NCBI GenBank assembly: GCA_964626885.1
Contig: CAZVJA010000010.1
Span: forward strand, 1 to 52,354
DNA: 52,354 nucleotides
Reading direction: 5' to 3'
Source of the DNA: an uncultured Planctomycetaceae bacterium
GTDB lineage: Bacteria; Planctomycetota; Planctomycetia; Planctomycetales; Planctomycetaceae
The notes below the pieces were generated by a model. That model searched no databases, was not told where the DNA came from, and saw only the letters and a program-made list of their open reading frames with translations. This document shows, one piece after another, positions 4,429 to 27,823 of the stretch; position 1 is the first letter of the stretch, and the number at the start of each line of letters is the position of its first letter. Made by a program: the position numbers and the translations under genes.

Positions 4429-5325
4429 ATGCCGCACGCTGAAGATTATCTCAAGCCCGAAGTAATCCGCACCGTCTCGCGGCTGGATCTGCGCGCGCGG
4501 TTCATCGTCGAGGGCTTTCTGAACGGCTTGCACGCCAGCCCCTATCATGGGTTCAGCGTCGAGTTCAGTGAGCATCGACGCTACTCACAAGGGGATGATC
4601 CGAAAGATATCGACTGGCTCGTCTACGCGAAGACCGATCGCTACTACATCAAGAAATATCAGGCCGAGACGAACATCACCGGTTACCTGCTGCTCGATTT
4701 GTCCGAGAGCATGGGCTACACGTATCGCCAGAAATTGACCAAATTCGATTACTCCGTCTGCCTCGCGGCGGCGCTCGGGTACATGATGATCCATCAGCAG
4801 GATCCGGTCGGGCTGATGACATTCGACGACGCGCTCCGTTCCAGCCTGCCGGCGCGAAGCCGCCGGACTCAGCTAGGGAACATCCTGGCGGTTCTCTCCA
4901 AAGCCCAGCCGACCGGGCCGACCGAAATCGCACATAACCTGCGGCGGATCGCTGCAATGGTGAAGCACCGCAGCCTGCTGATGCTGTTCTCGGATCTACT
5001 GACGGATCCTGGCCCGGTCGTCGAGGCGTTGCACATGCTCCGTTATGCCGGCCATGATTTGATTCTGTTTCATGTACTGGACGAAGCCGAGGTAACGTTT
5101 CCGTTTGATGGCATGGTCGACCTGAAGGATCCGGAAACGGGGGAGTCGCTGGTCGTGGATGCTGCCGGTATGCGTGCCGACTACCAGGAAACATTGAAGG
5201 AACTGCGGCAAAGGTTTCAGCGGGAGTGCCGCTCGATGGGGGTCGACTACGTGCCGCTCGACACGAGCATGCCGTTTGATAAGGCGCTCCTGGAGTACCT
5301 GTCGCAGCGGCAGGCGCGTTTCTAG
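4429..5325 (+). CDS. DUF58 (vWA-like) protein, MoxR partner
   Basis: 298 aa. HxxxxGxxxEFxxxRxYxxGDD motif (YHGFSVEFSEHRRYSQGDD) followed by LLLDLSESM. Sits immediately downstream of moxR. Confidence 0.8.
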   Translation: MPHAEDYLKPEVIRTVSRLDLRARFIVEGFLNGLHASPYHGFSVEFSEHRRYSQGDDPKDIDWLVYAKTDRYYIKKYQAETNITGYLLLDLSESMGYTYRQKLTKFDYSVCLAAALGYMMIHQQDPVGLMTFDDALRSSLPARSRRTQLGNILAVLSKAQPTGPTEIAHNLRRIAAMVKHRSLLMLFSDLLTDPGPVVEALHMLRYAGHDLILFHVLDEAEVTFPFDGMVDLKDPETGESLVVDAAGMRADYQETLKELRQRFQRECRSMGVDYVPLDTSMPFDKALLEYLSQRQARF

Positions 5326-6826: not shown

Positions 6827-8470
6827 ATGGATCATGATGTCATAGCCTATCCCGTTCTTTCCGGCCTGATTGTTTGGGCGAAGGTGTTCTTTGCCTGCCT
6901 GGGCATCGTGGCAGTGGTGTCGTTGGTTTTTTCGATCGCCAACAACGGCTTCGGCGAGGGTTTCCGCATCTGGCTTCGCGGGATCGCCAACGGAGTTGTC
7001 GATTTCGCTCACACTTCATTCCGCCGGGTTTGGGCGATTGCCATGCTGACGATCCGCGAGGCGATTCGCCGGAAGGCGCTGGTCGTGTTCGTGATCTTTG
7101 CCGTGTTGTTCATGTTTGCCGGCTGGTTTCTTCCCGAATCCGCCAGCAAACCGGACATGCTGGTTAAGGTAAACGTCAGCTTTGTGCTTAAGACGATCCT
7201 GTGGCTGATCCTGCCGGTGATGCTTCTGCTCGCTTGTTGGGGAATTCCAGAGGATATCCGCCTCCGTTCGATGCACACCGTGGTGACGAAGCCGGTACGC
7301 CGCAGCGAGATTGTCATGGGGCGCATCCTCGGTTTTACCGCTGTCGGTACGATGATCGTAGGGGTGATGAGCGGGGTGGGCTATTTGTGGCTCTATCGAC
7401 AAATTCCCCAGGATGTTCGTAAACAGGAACTGATCTGCCGGGTTCCTGTGTTCGCTACGCTGAGCTTCCTGAATCGGGAAGGGAATCCGTCTAACAAAGG
7501 AGTCAACACAGGGGACGTTTGGGACTTTCGTTCCTTTATTGAAGGGGCTACGAAATCCGCGGCGATTTGGGATTTCCAGGGAATTGGCCCGGAGGCACTG
7601 GTGCCGGTGGAGGACTCCACGACAGGCGAGATTGGTCCGGGGCTGCTGCTTGAGGTTCGTTTTGAGTCGTTCCGATCGCACAAAGGCGTGATTGGTAAGG
7701 GGCTGTTGGCACAATTGCGTCTCTCGAATCCGGAGGGAACAATCAGGCCGACGATTCCGCCGATTGAAGTCGCTGAGTTTCGCGGGAACCTCGTCGCGAT
7801 TCCACGAAAGATTTCCTATTTCGATGACGGAGCCAAAGCCACGAAAACCGTCGACTTGCTCGACGATCTTGTGGGCCCGAAGGGAGAATTACGGATCGAG
7901 ACACAGTGCCTGAACTCAGGCCAGTACCTGGGGATGGCACGGCCTGATCTGTTTATCCGCACGCCCGATCGCCATTTTGCCGTCGGATATTTCAAGGCCG
8001 TGATGGGGATCTGGCTCATGATGGCCCTCATGACCATGATCGGAGTCACAACCAGTTGCTTCGTGAAGGGCCCGGTGGCAACGCTGTGTACGTTCATGAT
8101 GCTCGCGGTGGGGCATTGGATGCGCGAGTTGATGGAGAAAATCGTCTCCGGCGAGCAGCAGGGGGGCGGACCGCTGGAATCGGTCTACCGAATGGTGATG
8201 CACTTGAACCAGGTTACCGAGTTGGACCCGGCATGGTGGGTCAAACCGGTGAAGTTCCTGGACCGCGCCGCAATTGAATTTCTGTGGCTGTGCAAGCAGG
8301 TGATTCCTAATTTCGATTATTTCGACATGGATGGCTATGTCGCGAATGGGTTCGACGTCAATTTCGGCGCTGCAATGGTTCCCAGCCTGCTCATCACGGC
8401 TGGGTTTGTGCTCCCGTGTCTGTTGATCGGCTACTACAGCCTCAGACTGCGGGAACTGGAGGCCAAGTGA
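6827..8470 (+). CDS. large polytopic membrane protein, probable ABC-2-type permease with a big periplasmic domain
   Basis: 547 aa. Multiple TM helices at both ends flank a roughly 250 aa soluble segment. Immediately downstream of the ABC ATPase, same strand. Confidence 0.55.
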   Translation: MDHDVIAYPVLSGLIVWAKVFFACLGIVAVVSLVFSIANNGFGEGFRIWLRGIANGVVDFAHTSFRRVWAIAMLTIREAIRRKALVVFVIFAVLFMFAGWFLPESASKPDMLVKVNVSFVLKTILWLILPVMLLLACWGIPEDIRLRSMHTVVTKPVRRSEIVMGRILGFTAVGTMIVGVMSGVGYLWLYRQIPQDVRKQELICRVPVFATLSFLNREGNPSNKGVNTGDVWDFRSFIEGATKSAAIWDFQGIGPEALVPVEDSTTGEIGPGLLLEVRFESFRSHKGVIGKGLLAQLRLSNPEGTIRPTIPPIEVAEFRGNLVAIPRKISYFDDGAKATKTVDLLDDLVGPKGELRIETQCLNSGQYLGMARPDLFIRTPDRHFAVGYFKAVMGIWLMMALMTMIGVTTSCFVKGPVATLCTFMMLAVGHWMRELMEKIVSGEQQGGGPLESVYRMVMHLNQVTELDPAWWVKPVKFLDRAAIEFLWLCKQVIPNFDYFDMDGYVANGFDVNFGAAMVPSLLITAGFVLPCLLIGYYSLRLRELEAK

Positions 8471-23548: not shown

Positions 23549-23718
23549 CGTCGTCGGTCTTTCCCAGGCGCGGGTCGGTAGCTGAGACGGACCAGCGGCG
23601 GTCTGAAGAACCGCAGACGAGGATTCGAGCGCCTCCCGACCCACCTTGCGCACCCGGTGCGCGCATTTCACGGCTAAGGATTTTGGAAATCAGGATGAAG
23701 CGAGATGCAGATCAATCG

Positions 23719-23791
23719 GGCGCGTTTGGCTTCTGGTGAGGCCGTCCGTCTTTCAAGCGGACCAGGTCGGGTTCGAATCCCACACGCGTCA
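23719..23791 (+). tRNA. tRNA-like, anticodon TTC (Glu), imperfect T-stem
   Basis: Acceptor GGCGCGT/ACGCGTC. Anticodon arm TCCGT-CTTTCAA-GCGGA. T-loop TTCGAAT, but the T-stem has only 3 of 5 pairs. Confidence 0.4.
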
Positions 23792-23804
23792 CTCGTCAAG
23801 TAAC

Positions 23805-23875
23805 AGCCCGGTGGTGTAACGGAAGCACTTCGTTCTGATAAGGCGACGGCGGTGGTTCGACTCCACCTCGGGCTA
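23805..23875 (+). tRNA. tRNA, anticodon GAT (Ile)
   Basis: Acceptor AGCCCGG/TCGGGCT. T arm GGTGG-TTCGACT-CCACC. Anticodon loop CTGATAA. Confidence 0.5.
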
Positions 23876-23963
23876 CTTCGGGAGATCAGCGGGCAAATGG
23901 AATCAATAAGAGGACGAACGATGCGAACACGACAACGCTGGAAACCGATCCCCACGATCACGC

Positions 23964-24035
23964 TAGGTCGTGGTGTAGCGGCAGCATCTCTGACTTTTAA
24001 TCAGACGGGTGGGGGTTCGAATCCCTCCGGCCTCA
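23964..24035 (+). tRNA. tRNA-Lys (TTT)
   Basis: Anticodon arm TCTGA-CTTTTAA-TCAGA. T arm GGGGG-TTCGAAT-CCCTC. Confidence 0.55.
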
Positions 24036-24055
24036 TGATTTGGATGAGACAACGG

Positions 24056-24127
24056 CAGCCCGTAGCTCAACGGTGAGAGCGGGCTCCTTATAAGAGCTTG
24101 ACGACGGTTCGACTCCGTCCGGGCTGA
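24056..24127 (+). tRNA. tRNA, anticodon TAT (Ile, rare anticodon)
   Basis: Acceptor CAGCCCG/CGGGCTG is perfect. D arm GCTC..GAGC. Anticodon arm GGCTC-CTTATAA-GAGCT. T arm GACGG-TTCGACT-CCGTC. Confidence 0.6.
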
Positions 24128-24149
24128 ATGGCGGAAACGACACACACGC

Positions 24150-24222
24150 GGGACTGAGGTGTTAGCGGCAGCATTTCCGGCTCTTAACCGGGAAGGTGAG
24201 GGTTCGAGTCCCTCCGGTCCCA
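24150..24222 (+). tRNA. tRNA-Lys (CTT)
   Basis: Acceptor GGGACTG/CGGTCCC. Anticodon arm TCCGG-CTCTTAA-CCGGG. T arm GAGGG-TTCGAGT-CCCTC. Confidence 0.6.
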
Positions 24223-24313
24223 TTGTATCGAATGACCAATGGCTTTCACGATGATCGCTTGACGGTTGTTAGTGGTGGGTTGAAAGCGCGAATGGTCGCG
24301 CATGTTCTTTGAC

Positions 24314-24384
24314 AATTCTTCGAGTAACGCAAAGCGCCCATGATGTAGCGGCTGCCTGCCGCCTTGCCATGGCGGACGTGCGGG
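24314..24384 (+). tRNA. tRNA-Gly (GCC)
   Basis: Acceptor GCGCCCA/TGGGCGC. Anticodon arm CCGCC-TTGCCAT-GGCGG. T arm GCGGG-TTCGACT-CCCGC. Confidence 0.65.
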
Positions 24385-24513
24385 TTCGACTCCCGCTGGG
24401 CGCTTTCTGGAGCAAATAGCTCCCCATCATGGCCGCGAAGTCAGTGTTTTGAACTTTGAATCTACGACCGCCACGAGCCGGAACGGTGATGGAACTTCGT
24501 AGCTGCTCTCATA

Positions 24514-24587
24514 CGGCGTATGGGAAAGTCTGGGAATCCGCGTGCTTCGGGAGCACGAGACCGTCGGTTCAAATCCGACTGCGCCGA
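24514..24587 (+). tRNA. tRNA-Pro (CGG)
   Basis: Acceptor CGGCGTA/TGCGCCG. Anticodon arm CGTGC-TTCGGGA-GCACG. T arm GTCGG-TTCAAAT-CCGAC. Irregular D arm. Confidence 0.55.
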
Positions 24588-24663
24588 CTCATACTCGATA
24601 TCGCCGTCGTGTAGATCGTTAAGTGAAGGTACTCCACGGATAGAAAGACCGCATAGGAGATAA

Positions 24664-25203
24664 TCAACCGCCGTCGGGCTCATCGCCGTCGTCGTCTTGC
24701 CAATTGATCGACTCGATCTGCTGAGCCGAGAGGATCAATAGCGAACCTTGCTCACAGGTAAACTTCGTGCCGAGCATTTGTGCGTCGGTAAAGTCACAGT
24801 CTTCGAGAGTTGACTGCCGTAAATCGGCATTCCGCAGATCGGAACGACTGAAATTCGCACGGACGAAGATGGCGGCCCGGAGATCGGAAGCGATCAATCG
24901 GCCCTCGGTAAAATCCACGTCGAGAAAGTCATTCCAACAAAGCGTGGATTCCGACAGGTCGGTATTCCTGAAGGAACAATCACTGATTTCCGATCGACCG
25001 AAAAAGGTTCGTGGAAGAGTCATGTCGGATAGGTCGACACCACTGACCGCGGTGCGAAAAAAATTGACTCCGAGCGATTCGTCATCGAAACGCGGCTGCC
25101 TCGGAGGGAGAGGCGGTATGGCGTCTTGGTCAATCAACCCCAGTCTCTGCAACTCTCGGCATGACTGCTCGTACGTTCGCCTGGATCGAGATTGTGTGCT
25201 CAT
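24664..25203 (-). CDS. pentapeptide-repeat protein
   Basis: Tandem A(D/N)LxX pentapeptide repeats (SDLRNADLRQSTLEDCDFTDAQ...). The ORF is open to 25410, but that extension would overlap tRNA-Asn (25341-25415), so the start is placed at the internal ATG (MSTQSRSRR). Confidence 0.7.
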   Translation of the reverse strand: MSTQSRSRRTYEQSCRELQRLGLIDQDAIPPLPPRQPRFDDESLGVNFFRTAVSGVDLSDMTLPRTFFGRSEISDCSFRNTDLSESTLCWNDFLDVDFTEGRLIASDLRAAIFVRANFSRSDLRNADLRQSTLEDCDFTDAQMLGTKFTCEQGSLLILSAQQIESINWQDDDGDEPDGG

Positions 25204-25340
25204 AGTCGTTTGTCGCGCCGCCAAATGAATGGTCTTCGTCGAACAATACCACACAGCATTGTTATGGCCATCCCTTATGTCGAAGTCAACGTGCAACAGA
25301 AAGTGTTCAACTAGCCTCGTAGTAAAGCAGAGCAAATTGA

Positions 25341-25415
25341 TGCGGTGGGGCCCGTGCTGGTACGGGCGGGCGGCTGTTAACCGCCGGGACGCACGTTCGA
25401 TTCGTGCCACCGCAG
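25341..25415 (+). tRNA. tRNA-Asn (GTT)
   Basis: Fully canonical cloverleaf. Acceptor TGCGGTG/CACCGCA. D arm GCCC..GGGC. Anticodon arm GGCGG-CTGTTAA-CCGCC. T arm GCACG-TTCGATT-CGTGC. Confidence 0.7.
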
Positions 25416-25427
25416 CTGGTCATCATT

Positions 25428-25510
25428 GGAAGTCATCCGGCTGGATGAGGAACCTGTCTCGAAAACAGGCGCGGCTCAGGTCGTTGTGGGTTCGAGTCCC
25501 ACGGCTTCCG
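25428..25510 (+). tRNA. tRNA-Ser (CGA), type II
   Basis: Acceptor GGAAGTC/GGCTTCC. Anticodon arm CCTGT-CTCGAAA-ACAGG. Long variable arm. T arm GTGGG-TTCGAGT-CCCAC. Confidence 0.65.
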
Positions 25511-25539
25511 CTTCGAGAGTTTCATTAACGCGACTTTAC

Positions 25540-25611
25540 GTGCCGTTGGCCGAGCGGCAGAGGTGCCAGGCCTCCAACCTGGCGAGGCGGGTTCGACTCC
25601 CGCACGGCACT
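25540..25611 (+). tRNA. tRNA-Gly (TCC)
   Basis: Acceptor GTGCCGT/ACGGCAC. Anticodon arm CCAGG-CCTCCAA-CCTGG. T arm GCGGG-TTCGACT-CCCGC. Confidence 0.6.
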
Positions 25612-25619
25612 CTTGGTTC

Positions 25620-25690
25620 GGGCCGGTCGTTCAGCGGCAGAGCAGGTTCCTGTTCAGCACCCGCGCGCGGGTTCGAGTCAGGGCACCGCC
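25620..25690 (+). pseudogene. degenerate tRNA-like element (T-loop TTCGAGT, D arm GTTC..GAGC, GTT-like anticodon loop) whose acceptor and T stems do not pair
   Basis: GGGTTCGAGTCA motif and D-arm-like AGCGGCAGAGC are present, but the 3' half of the T-stem (CAGGG) and the acceptor do not pair. Confidence 0.3.
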
Positions 25691-25731
25691 TAATAGGGTG
25701 GCCCGGTCCTCTCTCAATTTCATCGCGGGGT

Positions 25732-25806
25732 AGTTTCTGCTGGTAGAAGCACGCGGCTTTGAACCGCGAGTTCGTGGGTTCGATTCCCACCCCCGCAGCT
25801 GGCGAA
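25732..25806 (+). tRNA. tRNA-Gln (TTG)
   Basis: Acceptor CGCGGGG/CCCCGCA with a C1-A72 mismatch. Anticodon arm CGCGG-CTTTGAA-CCGCG. T arm GTGGG-TTCGATT-CCCAC. Confidence 0.55.
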
Positions 25807-25852
25807 CTTTCGATCGGTCAATGTGTCTTGCGAAGTACCGATGCTGCGGGGT

Positions 25853-25923
25853 CGTCTAATGGGAGGATGCGACGCTCTGAACGTCGTGATGCTGGTTCGA
25901 GCCCAGCCCCCGCAAATGTGACT
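25853..25923 (+). tRNA. tRNA-Gln (CTG)
   Basis: Acceptor TGCGGGG/CCCCGCA is perfect. Anticodon arm CGACG-CTCTGAA-CGTCG. T arm GCTGG-TTCGAGC-CCAGC. Confidence 0.65.
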
Positions 25924-25954
25924 TTTGAGCATCGGATCAGTTTTCGGCATTAGA

Positions 25955-25973
25955 CATTCGTCATTACAGGTGG
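25955..25973 (+). repeat. dispersed repeat GCATTAGACATTCGTCATT, copy A
   Basis: Identical 19-mer recurs at 27167-27185. An 18-nt inverted copy lies at 27824-27841. Confidence 0.7.
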
Positions 25974-26102
25974 TTTCAAAACCATGTAATTGGGAGGGCG
26001 ACACTCCTGTGGAGCCGCCATAACGAGAGACTTTCGGTCGCAGCGGCTCGGCGGGAGCCTCGCCCTCCCTGTTTTGAAAACACCTGCAGTCATTCCCTCC
26101 CG

Positions 26103-26173
26103 GGGCTCATGGTCCAACAGCAAGACACCGGTCCTGCAAACCGGAAATTCGGGTGCAACTCCCGATGAGTCCA
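26103..26173 (+). tRNA. tRNA-Ala (TGC) with a non-canonical T-loop TGCAACT
   Basis: Acceptor GGGCTCA/TGAGTCC. Anticodon arm CCGGT-CCTGCAA-ACCGG. T arm TCGGG-TGCAACT-CCCGA, with G at position 55. Confidence 0.55.
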
Positions 26174-26275
26174 CTGCGTGCGTGTCACAAAATGCTCTGG
26201 ACGTCGAGATACACCAGGTCGGTAGGGGGTTTCACTCACCGCCAACCACGTTTTGTGAGAAGCATTTTGAAAATC

Positions 26276-26347
26276 GGTCCCGTGGTCCAACGGCGACGAC
26301 ACTTGGCTCACATCCAGGAAACGATGGTTCAATTCCATCCGGGACCA
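26276..26347 (+). tRNA. tRNA-Val (CAC)
   Basis: Acceptor GGTCCCG/CGGGACC. Anticodon arm CTTGG-CTCACAT-CCAGG. T arm GATGG-TTCAATT-CCATC. Confidence 0.65.
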
Positions 26348-26360
26348 TTGAGAACCAGAG

Positions 26361-26434
26361 GCCCAGATACGCCAACCGGTCGAGCGGCTCGGCTTAAACC
26401 CGAGTGACTGTGAGTTCGAATCTCACTCTGGGCA
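26361..26434 (+). tRNA. tRNA, anticodon TAA (Leu codons), type-I size
   Basis: Acceptor GCCCAGA/TCTGGGC. Anticodon arm CTCGG-CTTAAAC-CCGAG. T arm GTGAG-TTCGAAT-CTCAC. 74 nt with no long variable arm. Confidence 0.5.
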
Positions 26435-26447
26435 TAAGTGGAACATC

Positions 26448-26521
26448 GGCTCGGTAGGCAACTGGCAGACCACGCTGTTTCAGACACAGCGATGCTGTGG
26501 GTTCAAATCCCACCTGAGCCA
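26448..26521 (+). tRNA. tRNA, anticodon CAG (Leu codons), type-I size
   Basis: Acceptor GGCTCGG/CTGAGCC. Anticodon arm GCTGT-TTCAGAC-ACAGC. T arm GTGGG-TTCAAAT-CCCAC. 74 nt. Confidence 0.5.
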
Positions 26522-26550
26522 CTGTTGGTGAAGAAGAATCAGAAAACTAC

Positions 26551-26625
26551 GTCCTCGCGGAGCAGTTCGGAGTGCTCGCCACCCTGTCACGGTGGAGATC
26601 GCGGGTTCAAATCCCGTCGAGGACG
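26551..26625 (+). tRNA. tRNA-Asp (GTC)
   Basis: Canonical. Acceptor GTCCTCG/CGAGGAC. D arm GAGC..GCTC. Anticodon arm CCACC-CTGTCAC-GGTGG. T arm GCGGG-TTCAAAT-CCCGT. Confidence 0.7.
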
Positions 26626-26753
26626 CTTGGAAGGAGCGGTCAGCAAAAAACAAAGCGAATTCGCCCCTCTCCCCTCGCGGGAGAGGGGACGGGGGTGAGG
26701 GGGCTTTCATAAACAGCATTACAAAATTTGATCACGGTGAAGTTAGAACGAAC

Positions 26754-26827
26754 GGCACGGTACGCCAACCGGACGAGCGGCCAGTTTCAAAACCTGGTGT
26801 TTGGGGGTTCGAATCCCTCCCGTGCCA
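26754..26827 (+). tRNA. tRNA, anticodon CAA (Leu codons), type-I size; paralog of the 26361 tRNA
   Basis: Acceptor GGCACGG/CCGTGCC. Anticodon region CCAGT-TTCAAAA-CCTGG. T arm GGGGG-TTCGAAT-CCCTC. D arm nearly identical to the 26361 gene. Confidence 0.45.
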
Positions 26828-26837
26828 CATGAAATCT

Positions 26838-26919
26838 GCGTCGGCTGGGCATTGGCGAGCCCAGGTGGCCGTAACCCACCCGCTCCCGAGCTGTGGCGGT
26901 TCAACTCCGTCCCGACGCA
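26838..26919 (+). tRNA. tRNA-Tyr (GTA), type II
   Basis: Acceptor GCGTCGG/CCGACGC. D arm GGGC..GCCC. Anticodon arm GGTGG-CCGTAAC-CCACC. 14-nt variable arm. T arm GGCGG-TTCAACT-CCGTC. Confidence 0.7.
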
Positions 26920-26928
26920 CTTGCTGGT

Positions 26929-26978
26929 AAGAGGGAGGACAGAAACAGAAGGAGGAAGACAGAGGACAGAATACAGAT
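26929..26978 (+). repeat. purine-rich (GA) low-complexity tract with degenerate GGAGGACAGA-type repeats
   Basis: AAGAGGGAGGACAGAAACAGAAGGAGGAAGACAGAGGACAGAATACAGA has almost no pyrimidines on the plus strand. Lies between tRNA-Tyr and the fMet-like tRNA. Confidence 0.6.
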
Positions 26979-27037
26979 GTCGGACGTGAATGATTGCGTG
27001 CGACGGCAACATGCTACGGACAACCGTCGCTCCGTCC

Positions 27038-27106
27038 TCCTCTTCATCGCAGGTGGGCCAGTGTCCAGCCGGGGCTCATAACCCCAGCCTGCCGGGTGCG
27101 ACTCCC
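27038..27106 (+). tRNA. tRNA-Met (CAT), initiator-like
   Basis: Anticodon loop CTCATAA flanked by three G-C pairs (GGGG/CCCC). First acceptor pair mismatched. T arm CCGGG-TGCGACT-CCCGG. Confidence 0.5.
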
Positions 27107-27166
27107 GGACCTGCTATCAGGCTTCAGGTGGCCAGACTTCAGGGAGTCAGGCGATCGAGAAGCCTT

Positions 27167-27185
27167 TGCATTAGACATTCGTCAT
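27167..27185 (+). repeat. dispersed repeat GCATTAGACATTCGTCATT, copy B
   Basis: Identical to 25955-25973. Lies 24 bp upstream of the tRNA at 27209. Confidence 0.7.
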
Positions 27186-27208
27186 TCGGATTTCGTGCTT
27201 TTGATGTT

Positions 27209-27284
27209 GGCCGGGTACGCAATCTGGTAAAGCGGCGAGGTCGAGAGTCTCGTGATTCTGTGGGTTCGACTCCCACCCTGGTCA
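27209..27284 (+). tRNA. tRNA, anticodon uncertain (possibly GAG)
   Basis: Acceptor GGCCGGG/CCTGGTC with two G-U pairs. T arm GTGGG-TTCGACT-CCCAC. The anticodon arm does not fold cleanly. Confidence 0.4.
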
Positions 27285-27308
27285 CTGCCTTGTTGATTTG
27301 GCGAAAGG

Positions 27309-27380
27309 GGTTCCGTGGTCCAACGGCGACGACACCAGCGCGACATGCTGGAGACGATGGTTCAATTCCATCCGGAATCA
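27309..27380 (+). tRNA. tRNA-Val (GAC), paralog of the 26276 tRNA with a swapped anticodon arm
   Basis: Acceptor GGTTCCG/CGGAATC. D arm identical to 26276 (TGGTCCAACGGCGACGACAC). Anticodon arm CCAGC-GCGACAT-GCTGG. T arm GATGG-TTCAATT-CCATC. Confidence 0.6.
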
Positions 27381-27393
27381 CTCGAAGAGTTAC

Positions 27394-27479
27394 GGAAGGG
27401 AGCCGGATACGGGTAGCCGGGCCGGTTTGCTAAACCGTGCGGCCAATCGGTCGTGTGAGTTCGAATCTCATCCCTTCCG
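27394..27479 (+). tRNA. tRNA-Ser (GCT), type II
   Basis: Acceptor GGAAGGG/CCCTTCC. D arm CCGG..CCGG. Anticodon loop TTGCTAA. 16-nt variable arm. T arm GTGAG-TTCGAAT-CTCAT. 86 nt. Confidence 0.65.
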
Positions 27480-27593
27480 CTTTTGACGGTGGAGTGATCG
27501 TCTGTAGGAGCAATTGCCGGGGCACGCTTCGCTTTGCCTCGGCCACCCGCTGCCGTGGAGGAAATGCGTCATCTCGAACAAAAAGTGGAACCG

Positions 27594-27666
27594 GGCCTGA
27601 TGGTGAAACGGAAGATCATCTCTCGCTTCTAACGAGAGGTTCCAGGTTCGAATCCTGGTCGGGCCG
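27594..27666 (+). tRNA. tRNA-Arg (TCT)
   Basis: Acceptor GGCCTGA/TCGGGCC. Anticodon arm TCTCG-CTTCTAA-CGAGA. T arm CCAGG-TTCGAAT-CCTGG. Confidence 0.7.
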
Positions 27667-27700
27667 CTTAATTTGTGACTGCAAGGAGACCTTTTCTGGA

Positions 27701-27729
27701 ATTCGTCATTCGTGCTTCGTCATTAGGAA
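27701..27729 (+). repeat. partial copies of the ATTCGTCATT repeat family (ATTCGTCATTCG ... CGTCATTAGG)
   Basis: Shares ATTCGTCATTCG with copy B and CGTCATTA with copy A. Confidence 0.5.
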
Positions 27730-27739
27730 ATTCCTTTGA

Positions 27740-27813
27740 CGGTGTCCGTGGTGTATGCGGTAGGCATACCTGCCTGTGAAGCAGGAGGTAAGGGTTCAAC
27801 TCCCTTCGGACAC
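27740..27813 (+). tRNA. tRNA-His (GTG) with encoded G-1
   Basis: G-1 followed by acceptor GTGTCCG/CGGACAC and a C73 discriminator. Anticodon arm CCTGC-CTGTGAA-GCAGG. T arm AAGGG-TTCAACT-CCCTT. Confidence 0.75.
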
Positions 27814-27823
27814 CCTTCGCTAG

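Follow-up and report, generated by a model that had tools for sequence, protein, structure and literature searches.

The long variable arm, which is the hallmark of type II tRNAs, is assigned by the review PMC9976931 to the tRNAs for leucine (Leu) and serine (Ser) everywhere but in animal mitochondria. The leucine identity read by the leucyl-tRNA synthetase (LeuRS) of E. coli comprises A73, A14, A15-U48, G18G19, A20a and contacts of the D and T loops, while neither the arm nor the anticodon is required and a minimal tRNA-Leu without the arm is still active (PMC9976931). In Streptomyces coelicolor a type I tRNA-Leu(CAA) with a loop of 5 nt is essential and is leucylated by the single LeuRS of that organism (Fan et al. 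2019, PMC6614811). Behra et al. 2019 mention a mycobacterial cluster with Ile-UAU, Arg-UCG and an HNH gene, the tRNA-Leu(UAG) of which differs from the housekeeping copy by its short variable loop (PMC6582537). Planctomycetes are among the phyla with long, horizontally spread tRNA arrays (Tran et al. 2016, PMC4758250; Santamaria-Gomez et al. 2021, PMC8421152). Their clusters are thought to be horizontally acquired and redundant with the housekeeping tRNAs, Ile(UAU) being the only anticodon exclusive to them (PMC4807772). The array of Anabaena is functional and induced under translational stress (PMC8421152). Here we describe four tRNA-Leu genes without the long arm, which belong to a tRNA gene array of an uncultured Planctomycetaceae bacterium (contig CAZVJA010000010.1, assembly GCA_964626885.1; the 52,354 nucleotides analysed are called the window). 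They are likely genuine leucine-accepting type I tRNA-Leu of a maintained, supernumerary and phage-related array.

The four genes were analysed with ARAGORN and with Infernal using the Rfam family RF00005, which are two independent programs; the gathering score of that family is 29 bits, and gene lengths are counted to the discriminator. The original prediction, made from the sequence alone, had read tRNAs of 74-76 nt with variable loops of 4-6 nt and the anticodons TAA, CAG and CAA, and both programs agree with this. A fourth gene at 27209, which had been named as a possibility, turned out to be real: both programs report a tRNA-Leu(GAG). All four genes align end to end with RF00005 (model positions 1-71) above the gathering score. 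Each of them combines a Leu anticodon with a variable loop that measures about 5 nt and forms no hairpin, as expected of a type I tRNA-Leu, and none possesses the long variable arm of type II tRNAs. The D arms of the genes at 26361 and 26754, noted before as almost identical, differ by a single base (CGCCAACCGGTCGAGCG vs CGCCAACCGGACGAGCG). A shifted stem or an overlooked long arm had been suggested as a possible source of error. Neither was found, the two programs place the anticodon in the same register, and a misfold or a concealed arm is excluded by this agreement together with gene lengths that leave no room for an arm. The shape is unusual when compared to the textbook rule, which the review cited above still upholds. 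The Streptomyces and mycobacterial reports (PMC6614811, PMC6582537) contradict the further claim that type II is the invariable form of tRNA-Leu in bacteria.

Table 1. Coordinates of the short tRNA-Leu genes, of the array and of further features in the window.
Feature	Position	Strand	Evidence and remarks
Type I tRNA-Leu(UAA), 74 nt, variable loop 4 nt	26361..26434	+	58.4 bits, E 7.5e-12; 3-bp D stem
Type I tRNA-Leu(CAG), 74 nt, variable loop 5 nt, 6-bp anticodon stem	26448..26521	+	42.8 bits
Type I tRNA-Leu(CAA), 74 nt, variable loop 5 nt	26754..26827	+	49.0 bits
Type I tRNA-Leu(GAG), 76 nt, variable loop 6 nt, C33	27209..27284	+	38.1 bits
tRNA gene array, 32 genes	23572..29296	+	ARAGORN; order collinear with many Planctomycetota arrays
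HNH endonuclease gene inside the array	27879..28475	+	Pfam HNH 8.3e-15; PHROG 16726 HNH endonuclease 1.2e-32
tRNA-Ile(UAU), hallmark of such arrays	24056..24127	+	64.8 bits, top Rfam tRNA score of the window; described for Planctomycete clusters (PMC4807772)
tRNA-Tyr(GUA), 83 nt, long variable arm retained, internal control	26838..26920	+	ARAGORN
tRNA-Ser(CGA), 84 nt, long variable arm retained, internal control	25428..25511	+	ARAGORN
tRNA-Ser(GCU), 87 nt, long variable arm retained, internal control	27394..27480	+	ARAGORN

Apart from the missing arm the four genes have the body of a type II tRNA-Leu. They share A73, U8-A9, a D stem of 2-3 bp, an 11-nt D loop of the form NAAYYGGNNNA and U48. 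The D loops of the UAA, CAG, CAA and GAG genes read CAACCGGTCGA, CAACTGGCAGA, CAACCGGACGA and AATCTGGTAAA, and the T loops, in the same order, TTCGAAT, TTCAAAT, TTCGAAT and TTCGACT. A14, A15 together with U48, G18G19, an A after position 20, the large D loop and a T loop with U54 and A58 are present in all four. For comparison, unique sequences from the collected loci were grouped into 357 short Leu, 78 long Leu and 1856 tRNAs of other isotypes. The E. coli identity nucleotide A73, found in four of the four genes, is kept by 331 of the 357 unique short Leu (93%), U48 by 97% and the 11-nt D loop by 85%; the consensus of their D loop is CAACTGGCAGA, that of the long Leu (78 unique sequences) GAAYTGGYAGA. 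Among the other isotypes a D stem of 4 bp and a loop of 7-10 nt predominate, and at position 48 C is commonest (42% vs 35% for U). Five features taken together as a Leu signature occur in 84% of the short and 77% of the long Leu but in 1.1% of the 1856 other tRNAs. The short Leu differ from the long ones consistently in A9 instead of G9 and in C or A instead of G at position 13, which suggests that the tRNA core may have been re-adapted to the absent arm.

The original prediction had left two outcomes, charging with leucine despite the non-canonical shape, or another identity and hence misreading of Leu codons. In the second case the short tRNAs would be descendants of another type I isotype with a changed anticodon and would cause recoding or deliberate mistranslation at Leu codons. 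The type I shape is indeed that of non-Leu tRNAs, one relative (Virus Rctr197k) carries the GenBank label 'tRNA-Ser(cag)', and a switch of the anticodon from UAG to CAG is seen at one position of the arrays. However, the D arm with its 2-3-bp stem and 11-nt loop (NAAYYGGYNGA) is of the Leu type and differs from that of most other isotypes. In addition, A73 speaks against Ser, which has G73, there is no long arm for seryl-tRNA synthetase (SerRS), and G3:U70, on which alanyl-tRNA synthetase would depend, is absent from all four genes. Most other synthetases read the anticodon, which is a Leu anticodon here (PMC9976931), and one common body is found in all isoacceptors. We therefore consider another identity highly improbable. 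Misreading finds no support, and charging with leucine is favoured by the retained identity elements, by the dispensability of the arm for E. coli LeuRS (PMC9976931) and by the leucylation reported from Streptomyces (PMC6614811).

C33, which is listed in Table 1 for the GAG gene, is common to 21 of the 32 unique Leu(GAG) genes of the arrays and to seven of 19 viral ones. It is also found in 150 of the 1856 other array tRNAs, chiefly Thr(CGU) and Glu(CUC).

Covariation was studied in an alignment of 55 short Leu tRNAs, all of which are less than 78% identical to each other. In this alignment 97.5% of the stem cells are paired, 389 double changes are seen and 19 of 20 pairs covary. No shuffled alignment reached the observed covariation score, and structures slid by 1-3 columns pair to only 36-47%. 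In the chromosomal arrays alone each isoacceptor group is paired to 97-99.5%, with several pair types at most positions; since these stems were fitted by ARAGORN, this pairing count is biased towards structure. The paired stems and the compensatory changes indicate that the short Leu are selected genes and not decayed ones.

The loss of the arm is specific to Leu. The collected loci contain 388 short and 81 long tRNA-Leu, four short and 192 long tRNA-Ser, and one short and 71 long tRNA-Tyr. As these loci were chosen by a D-arm motif of short Leu, the Leu frequencies are biased upward, which does not affect the counts for Ser and Tyr. Within the window the tRNA-Tyr and both tRNA-Ser have retained their hairpin arms, so the array is not devoid of type II tRNAs in general. 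The single short tRNA-Tyr corresponds to one of 33 in the viral loci and none of 39 in the genome loci; it is an annotated 73-nt tRNA-Tyr(gta) of a Microbacterium phage (L001, 8456-8528), which lies beside two copies of 84 nt.

The order of the tRNA genes in the window is Phe, Glu, Ile, Lys, Ile(UAU), Lys, Gly, Pro, Asn, Ser, Gly, Gln, Gln, Ala, Val, Leu(UAA), Leu(CAG), Asp, Leu(CAA), Tyr, Met, Leu(GAG), Val, Ser, Arg, His, Trp, Thr, Arg, Arg, Cys. This order recurs with local gains and losses in many Planctomycete arrays, from Pirellulaceae to Singulisphaera (L232) and Kuenenia (L163), and the short Leu genes are found at orthologous places in arrays as distant as these last two. The closest arrays are 70-94% identical over the tRNA genes in BLAST, the HNH region included, and none of the collected loci is more than 95% identical to the array of the window. 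The second Leu position is occupied by UAG in most arrays and by CAG in the window, in L157 and in L232. At the position of Leu(CAA) the orthologs of the array lineage have variable regions of 4-12 unstructured nt. Canonical long copies have 13-15 nt with a hairpin and a body with G9 and G13. Between Tyr and Met most relatives keep Glu(CUC) and one long Leu(CAG) of type II. Both were lost from the window, and by the loss of the latter its array is left without any long-armed Leu. Where relatives hold these two genes, a purine-rich spacer of 127 nt (26921-27046) is found in the window. The uniqueness of the four genes that the original prediction implied can thus not be upheld, because the same short Leu genes occur phylum-wide at orthologous array positions and also in many phages.

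An alternative is that the array tRNAs, the short Leu included, are decaying relics of a horizontally acquired cluster, in which case deletion of the arm would be a step on the way to a nonfunctional pseudogene. Planctomycete 'degenerate tRNA gene clusters' have significantly lower Cove scores and were suggested to be dispensable (Kim et al. 2016, PMC4807772). In the window 24 of the 32 ARAGORN calls pass the Rfam RF00005 gathering score in Infernal and eight fall below it, and the loss of Glu(CUC) and long Leu(CAG), the C33 of the GAG copy and an aberrant 'Met' gene at 27047 fit decay as well. Promoter and terminator signals in the array are at chance level (one promoter-like site vs 1.8 expected, ten terminator-like sites vs 7.6), in a scan that used the sigma-70 consensus, from which Planctomycete promoters may differ, and that is uninformative on expression. 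On the other hand, the almost complete pairing and the abundant compensatory changes, which are seen family-wide as well as within the chromosomal arrays, the nearly invariant identity nucleotides and the orthologous positions across distant Planctomycete families are hard to reconcile with relics. Moreover, the arm was lost in that type II isotype whose synthetase tolerates its absence, which random decay would not yield, and the analogous array of Anabaena is inducible and functional (PMC8421152). Decay is therefore an unlikely explanation.

To determine the distribution of the family, genomes were scanned with the D-arm motif of the CAG gene (GGTAGGCAACTGGNNGACCAC), which matched 85 contigs; among the matches listed, at least 76 of 80 are from Planctomycetota. 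The taxa include Pirellulaceae, Planctomycetaceae, Gemmataceae, Isosphaeraceae, Thermoguttaceae, Kuenenia, Gimesia, Bremerella cremea and Singulisphaera sp. PoT. The motif lies inside a tRNA-Leu of 74-77 nt in 77 of 79 cases, and 64 of these loci have at least ten tRNA genes within 8 kb. In two metagenome-assembled genomes, one from Gemmatales (L170, 2184-2258) and one from Gemmataceae (L210, 5214-5287), a short tRNA-Leu(CAG) is found alone or nearly so, without an array; its neighbours there encode an RsgA GTPase, a MacB-type ABC transporter, HlyD and an aminotransferase. These stand-alone genes are possibly domesticated copies.

Viral sequences contain the short form frequently. A phage-type D arm (TAGCCCAACTGGCAGAGGC) was found in at least 120 viral contigs, while the pattern specific to the window (TACGCCAACCGGNCGAGCGG) gave no match in the viral scan. 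Two contigs were traced through IMG/VR relatives of the HNH protein. One is a phage contig of 447 kb (L003), all five tRNA-Leu of which (UAA, GAG, CAG, UAG, CAA) are short next to a tRNA-Ser of 91 nt; the other, of 279 kb (L010), has short and long Leu mixed. With a 74-nt short Leu gene as BLAST query, 51 search records of isolated phages had a query coverage of at least 80%. The top-ranked records are annotated as tRNA-Leu and come from Streptomyces, Gordonia, Rhodococcus, Microcystis and T4-like Citrobacter phages and from Mycobacterium prophages. Over its full length the CAG gene of the window shares 76% identity with a tRNA-Leu(cag) of 75 nt that is annotated in a Microbacterium phage. A search of phage DNA with the whole array revealed only short matches to single tRNAs (e.g. 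Asp, Pro and Gly; one further short match lies under an HNH endonuclease gene) and no close relative. A plasmid search gave no Leu matches, and no Leu gene is present in the tRNA region examined of Streptomyces phage JustBecause.

Two phages deserve a closer description. In Virus Rctr197k (KX853510.1; L243, 5826-5901), a phage from a DAMO (denitrifying anaerobic methane oxidation)/anammox enrichment, ARAGORN identifies the 76-nt gene with the database label 'tRNA-Ser(cag)' as a short tRNA-Leu(CAG). It is accompanied by short GAG and CAA genes, a UAA gene with 7 nt, a longer UAG gene and an HNH gene. The T4-like Citrobacter phage Ci1 (L242) encodes short Leu(CAA) and Leu(UAG) genes (5001-5077 and 7987-8064) beside a long Leu(UAA). 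The latter phage suggests that, in nature, a LeuRS of the E. coli type may be required to charge tRNA-Leu without the arm, even though the Streptomyces tRNA gave a negative result (discussed below).

The array itself consists of 32 tRNA genes (ARAGORN) on a single strand within 5725 bp, i.e. about 5.6 genes per kb, and serves all 20 amino acids. It conforms to the L-array definition of at least 20 tRNA genes at a density of at least two per kb (Tran et al. 2016). With its embedded HNH endonuclease and the rare isoacceptors Ile-UAU, Arg-UCG and Arg-GCG it also resembles the mycobacterial arrays. Relatives of the HNH protein are encoded in the phage tRNA arrays L003 and L010, and the HNH region is collinear in other Planctomycete arrays. 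The flanks of the array are those of an ordinary bacterial chromosome with a Planctomycete flavour. They encode two sulfatases, a DUF4159 protein, a MoxR ATPase, arginyl-tRNA synthetase (ArgRS), a hybrid histidine kinase, a chlorite-dismutase-like protein and an SPFH protein. The gene for the last of these lies downstream, and in L178 it adjoins the array as well. A phage genome as the origin of the window is ruled out by the sulfatase, DUF4159, MoxR, ArgRS and histidine kinase genes and by the SPFH gene next to the array of this other Planctomycete.

A UAA anticodon had been regarded as unexpected in a high-GC genome in which UUA is very rare. The G+C content of the window is 56-61%, that is only moderately high, and in 16 flanking genes UUA is rare but used (2.1% of the Leu codons). 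AUA makes up three of the 432 Ile codons in the same genes, yet tRNA-Ile(UAU) is the best-scoring tRNA of the window. The rarity of both codons indicates that the array is not tuned to the codon usage of the host, and the UAA anticodon is accounted for by the place of its gene in an imported, conserved array and not by that usage.

Several further peculiarities of the array were noticed. A pentapeptide-repeat open reading frame (24664-25410, minus strand) lies between Pro(CGG) and Asn(GUU); it looks like a lineage-specific insertion, as these two tRNA genes adjoin each other in related arrays. The 'tRNA-Met(CAU)' at 27047-27118 is called by ARAGORN only and has a mismatched acceptor stem and the T loop GUGCGAC. 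Infernal reports a sub-threshold match to the Tymovirus tRNA-like element at this place (29.3 bits vs 40), and related arrays contain a counterpart of the aberrant gene at the same position. tRNA-Phe(GAA) genes, quite different in sequence, are found at both ends of the array (23572-23645 and 29221-29296). A G+C-rich inverted repeat (CCCCTCTCCCCTCGCGGGAGAGGGG...) is located at 26655-26700 in the spacer between Asp and Leu(CAA).

Taken as leucine-accepting tRNAs, the four genes would fit the following picture. The array with its HNH endonuclease would be an extra set of tRNAs, which has counterparts of the same order across Planctomycetota and related arrays in large phages. Bacterial LeuRS reads neither the anticodon nor, in the systems tested, the arm, so the LeuRS of the host would be expected to load leucine, and UUA, UUG and CUN would then be read as leucine. 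Loss of the arm would be possible from Leu only, as SerRS needs the arm and tRNA-Tyr retains it in every array examined. Charging by a Planctomycete LeuRS is most likely, judging from the retained identity set and by analogy to two precedents. The genes are presumably expressed, and the loss of the arm may bring a benefit.

Several points weigh against this reading. The LeuRS of E. coli did not charge the type I tRNA-Leu(CAA) of Streptomyces with leucine, and the capacity to do so was mapped to the leucine-specific domain of Streptomyces LeuRS (PMC6614811). Charging by an arbitrary bacterial LeuRS is thus not guaranteed, which is the main caveat; the leuS gene of the host lies outside the window. 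Kim et al. 2016 view the tRNAs of the Planctomycete clusters as partly degraded and dispensable (PMC4807772). The copies in the window are also not flawless: the CAG copy has a C-A mismatch in the D stem and only two D-stem pairs, the CAA copy has one U-C mismatch at the bottom of the anticodon stem, and the GAG copy carries C33 in place of the near-universal U33 (anticodon loop U-C-GAG-A-G). Finally, the covariation reflects selection over the history of the family and not the present function of the four copies in the window.

It is also conceivable that the genes are leucine tRNAs whose arm was lost adaptively, as an escape from toxins or nucleases which use or cut the long arm, and that the array is a counter-defence or a back-up under stress. 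Effectors of that kind are known, namely Septu and retron-Eco7, which act on tRNA-Tyr, and MenT3, which acts on tRNA-Ser. Arrays have been proposed as anti-defence elements (PMC12803027), phages whose hosts are unrelated often carry the short form, and array tRNAs possess unusual anticodon loops, e.g. with C33. However, an effector directed at the arm of tRNA-Leu is neither known in Planctomycetes nor found in the window. The spread of variable regions among the orthologous Leu(CAA) resembles a relaxed length constraint and not a tuned escape, and many arrays have retained one long Leu(CAG). Since neutral loss of an arm that LeuRS tolerates gives the same pattern and accounts for the data, an adaptive loss, though attractive, is less probable. 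Extended further, such a scenario would see the arm loss as a recurrent phage counter-defence with LeuRS as the only tolerant synthetase among those for type II tRNAs. The Planctomycetes would have kept the array as a back-up under stress or infection, and the stand-alone Leu(CAG) genes of the Gemmatales (L170, L210) may be housekeeping genes in parallel to Streptomyces. We put this forward as a speculation with rather low odds of being correct.

The short Leu genes form an under-appreciated class with a published bacterial precedent and are not a one-off oddity. In Planctomycete arrays as well as in phages of unrelated hosts, arm-less tRNA-Leu covering all Leu anticodons are both common and conserved, and they contradict the published statement that tRNA-Leu is universally long-armed outside animal mitochondria. 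The genes of the window are ordinary members of this class and no evidence of recoding. Full-text literature searches for arm-less tRNA-Leu of phages or arrays revealed only Fan 2019 and the remark in Behra 2019, with most subscription journals outside their coverage, so that other reports may exist. The breadth seen here is not described in the literature found, and the searchable literature is incomplete. Short Leu next to untouched Ser and Tyr constitute a natural experiment on the recognition by LeuRS and offer a testable link between the architecture of the variable arm and tRNA-targeting defence systems. The deposition of one relative as 'tRNA-Ser(cag)' calls for caution in the annotation of isotypes.

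Among the known systems, animal mitochondrial tRNA-Leu and the minimalist tRNA-Leu of E. coli (Larkin et al. 2002, as presented in PMC9976931) share the lack of a long arm with the genes described here, and for them A73, A14 and contacts of the D and T loops are given as sufficient. The mitochondrial tRNAs differ by their relaxed cores and a dedicated LeuRS. The minimalist tRNA is artificial, whereas the tRNAs of the window occur naturally, possess canonical D and T loops and would depend on the host's own LeuRS.

By architecture the S. coelicolor tRNA-Leu(CAA) is alike, since it is bacterial and has a variable loop of 5 nt. In contrast to the four isoacceptors in the supernumerary array of a Planctomycete, it is one essential, stand-alone chromosomal isoacceptor of an actinomycete. 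That system has its own features: type II tRNA-Leu exist alongside, there is a single LeuRS, leucylation was shown and the length of the loop matters and not its sequence; A73 does not belong to the identity elements, and a special domain of LeuRS is required.

The mycobacterial array units (PMC5966550, PMC6582537, PMC12803027) resemble the array of the window in about 30 densely packed tRNA genes, the embedded HNH gene and Ile-UAU, Arg-UCG and Arg-GCG. They belong to another phylum and reside on plasmids, phages or islands. The short loop reported by Behra et al. 2019 is a remark of one sentence on one isoacceptor, without an analysis of identity, conservation or distribution (PMC6582537).

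The Planctomycete 'degenerate tRNA gene clusters' (PMC4807772) and L-arrays (PMC8421152, PMC4758250) are the same genomic object as the array studied here. In these papers the tRNAs are held to be partly degraded, and their searchable text does not mention short tRNA-Leu. Contrary to the view of a degenerate cluster, the covariation and synteny found here indicate that the genes of the array are maintained.

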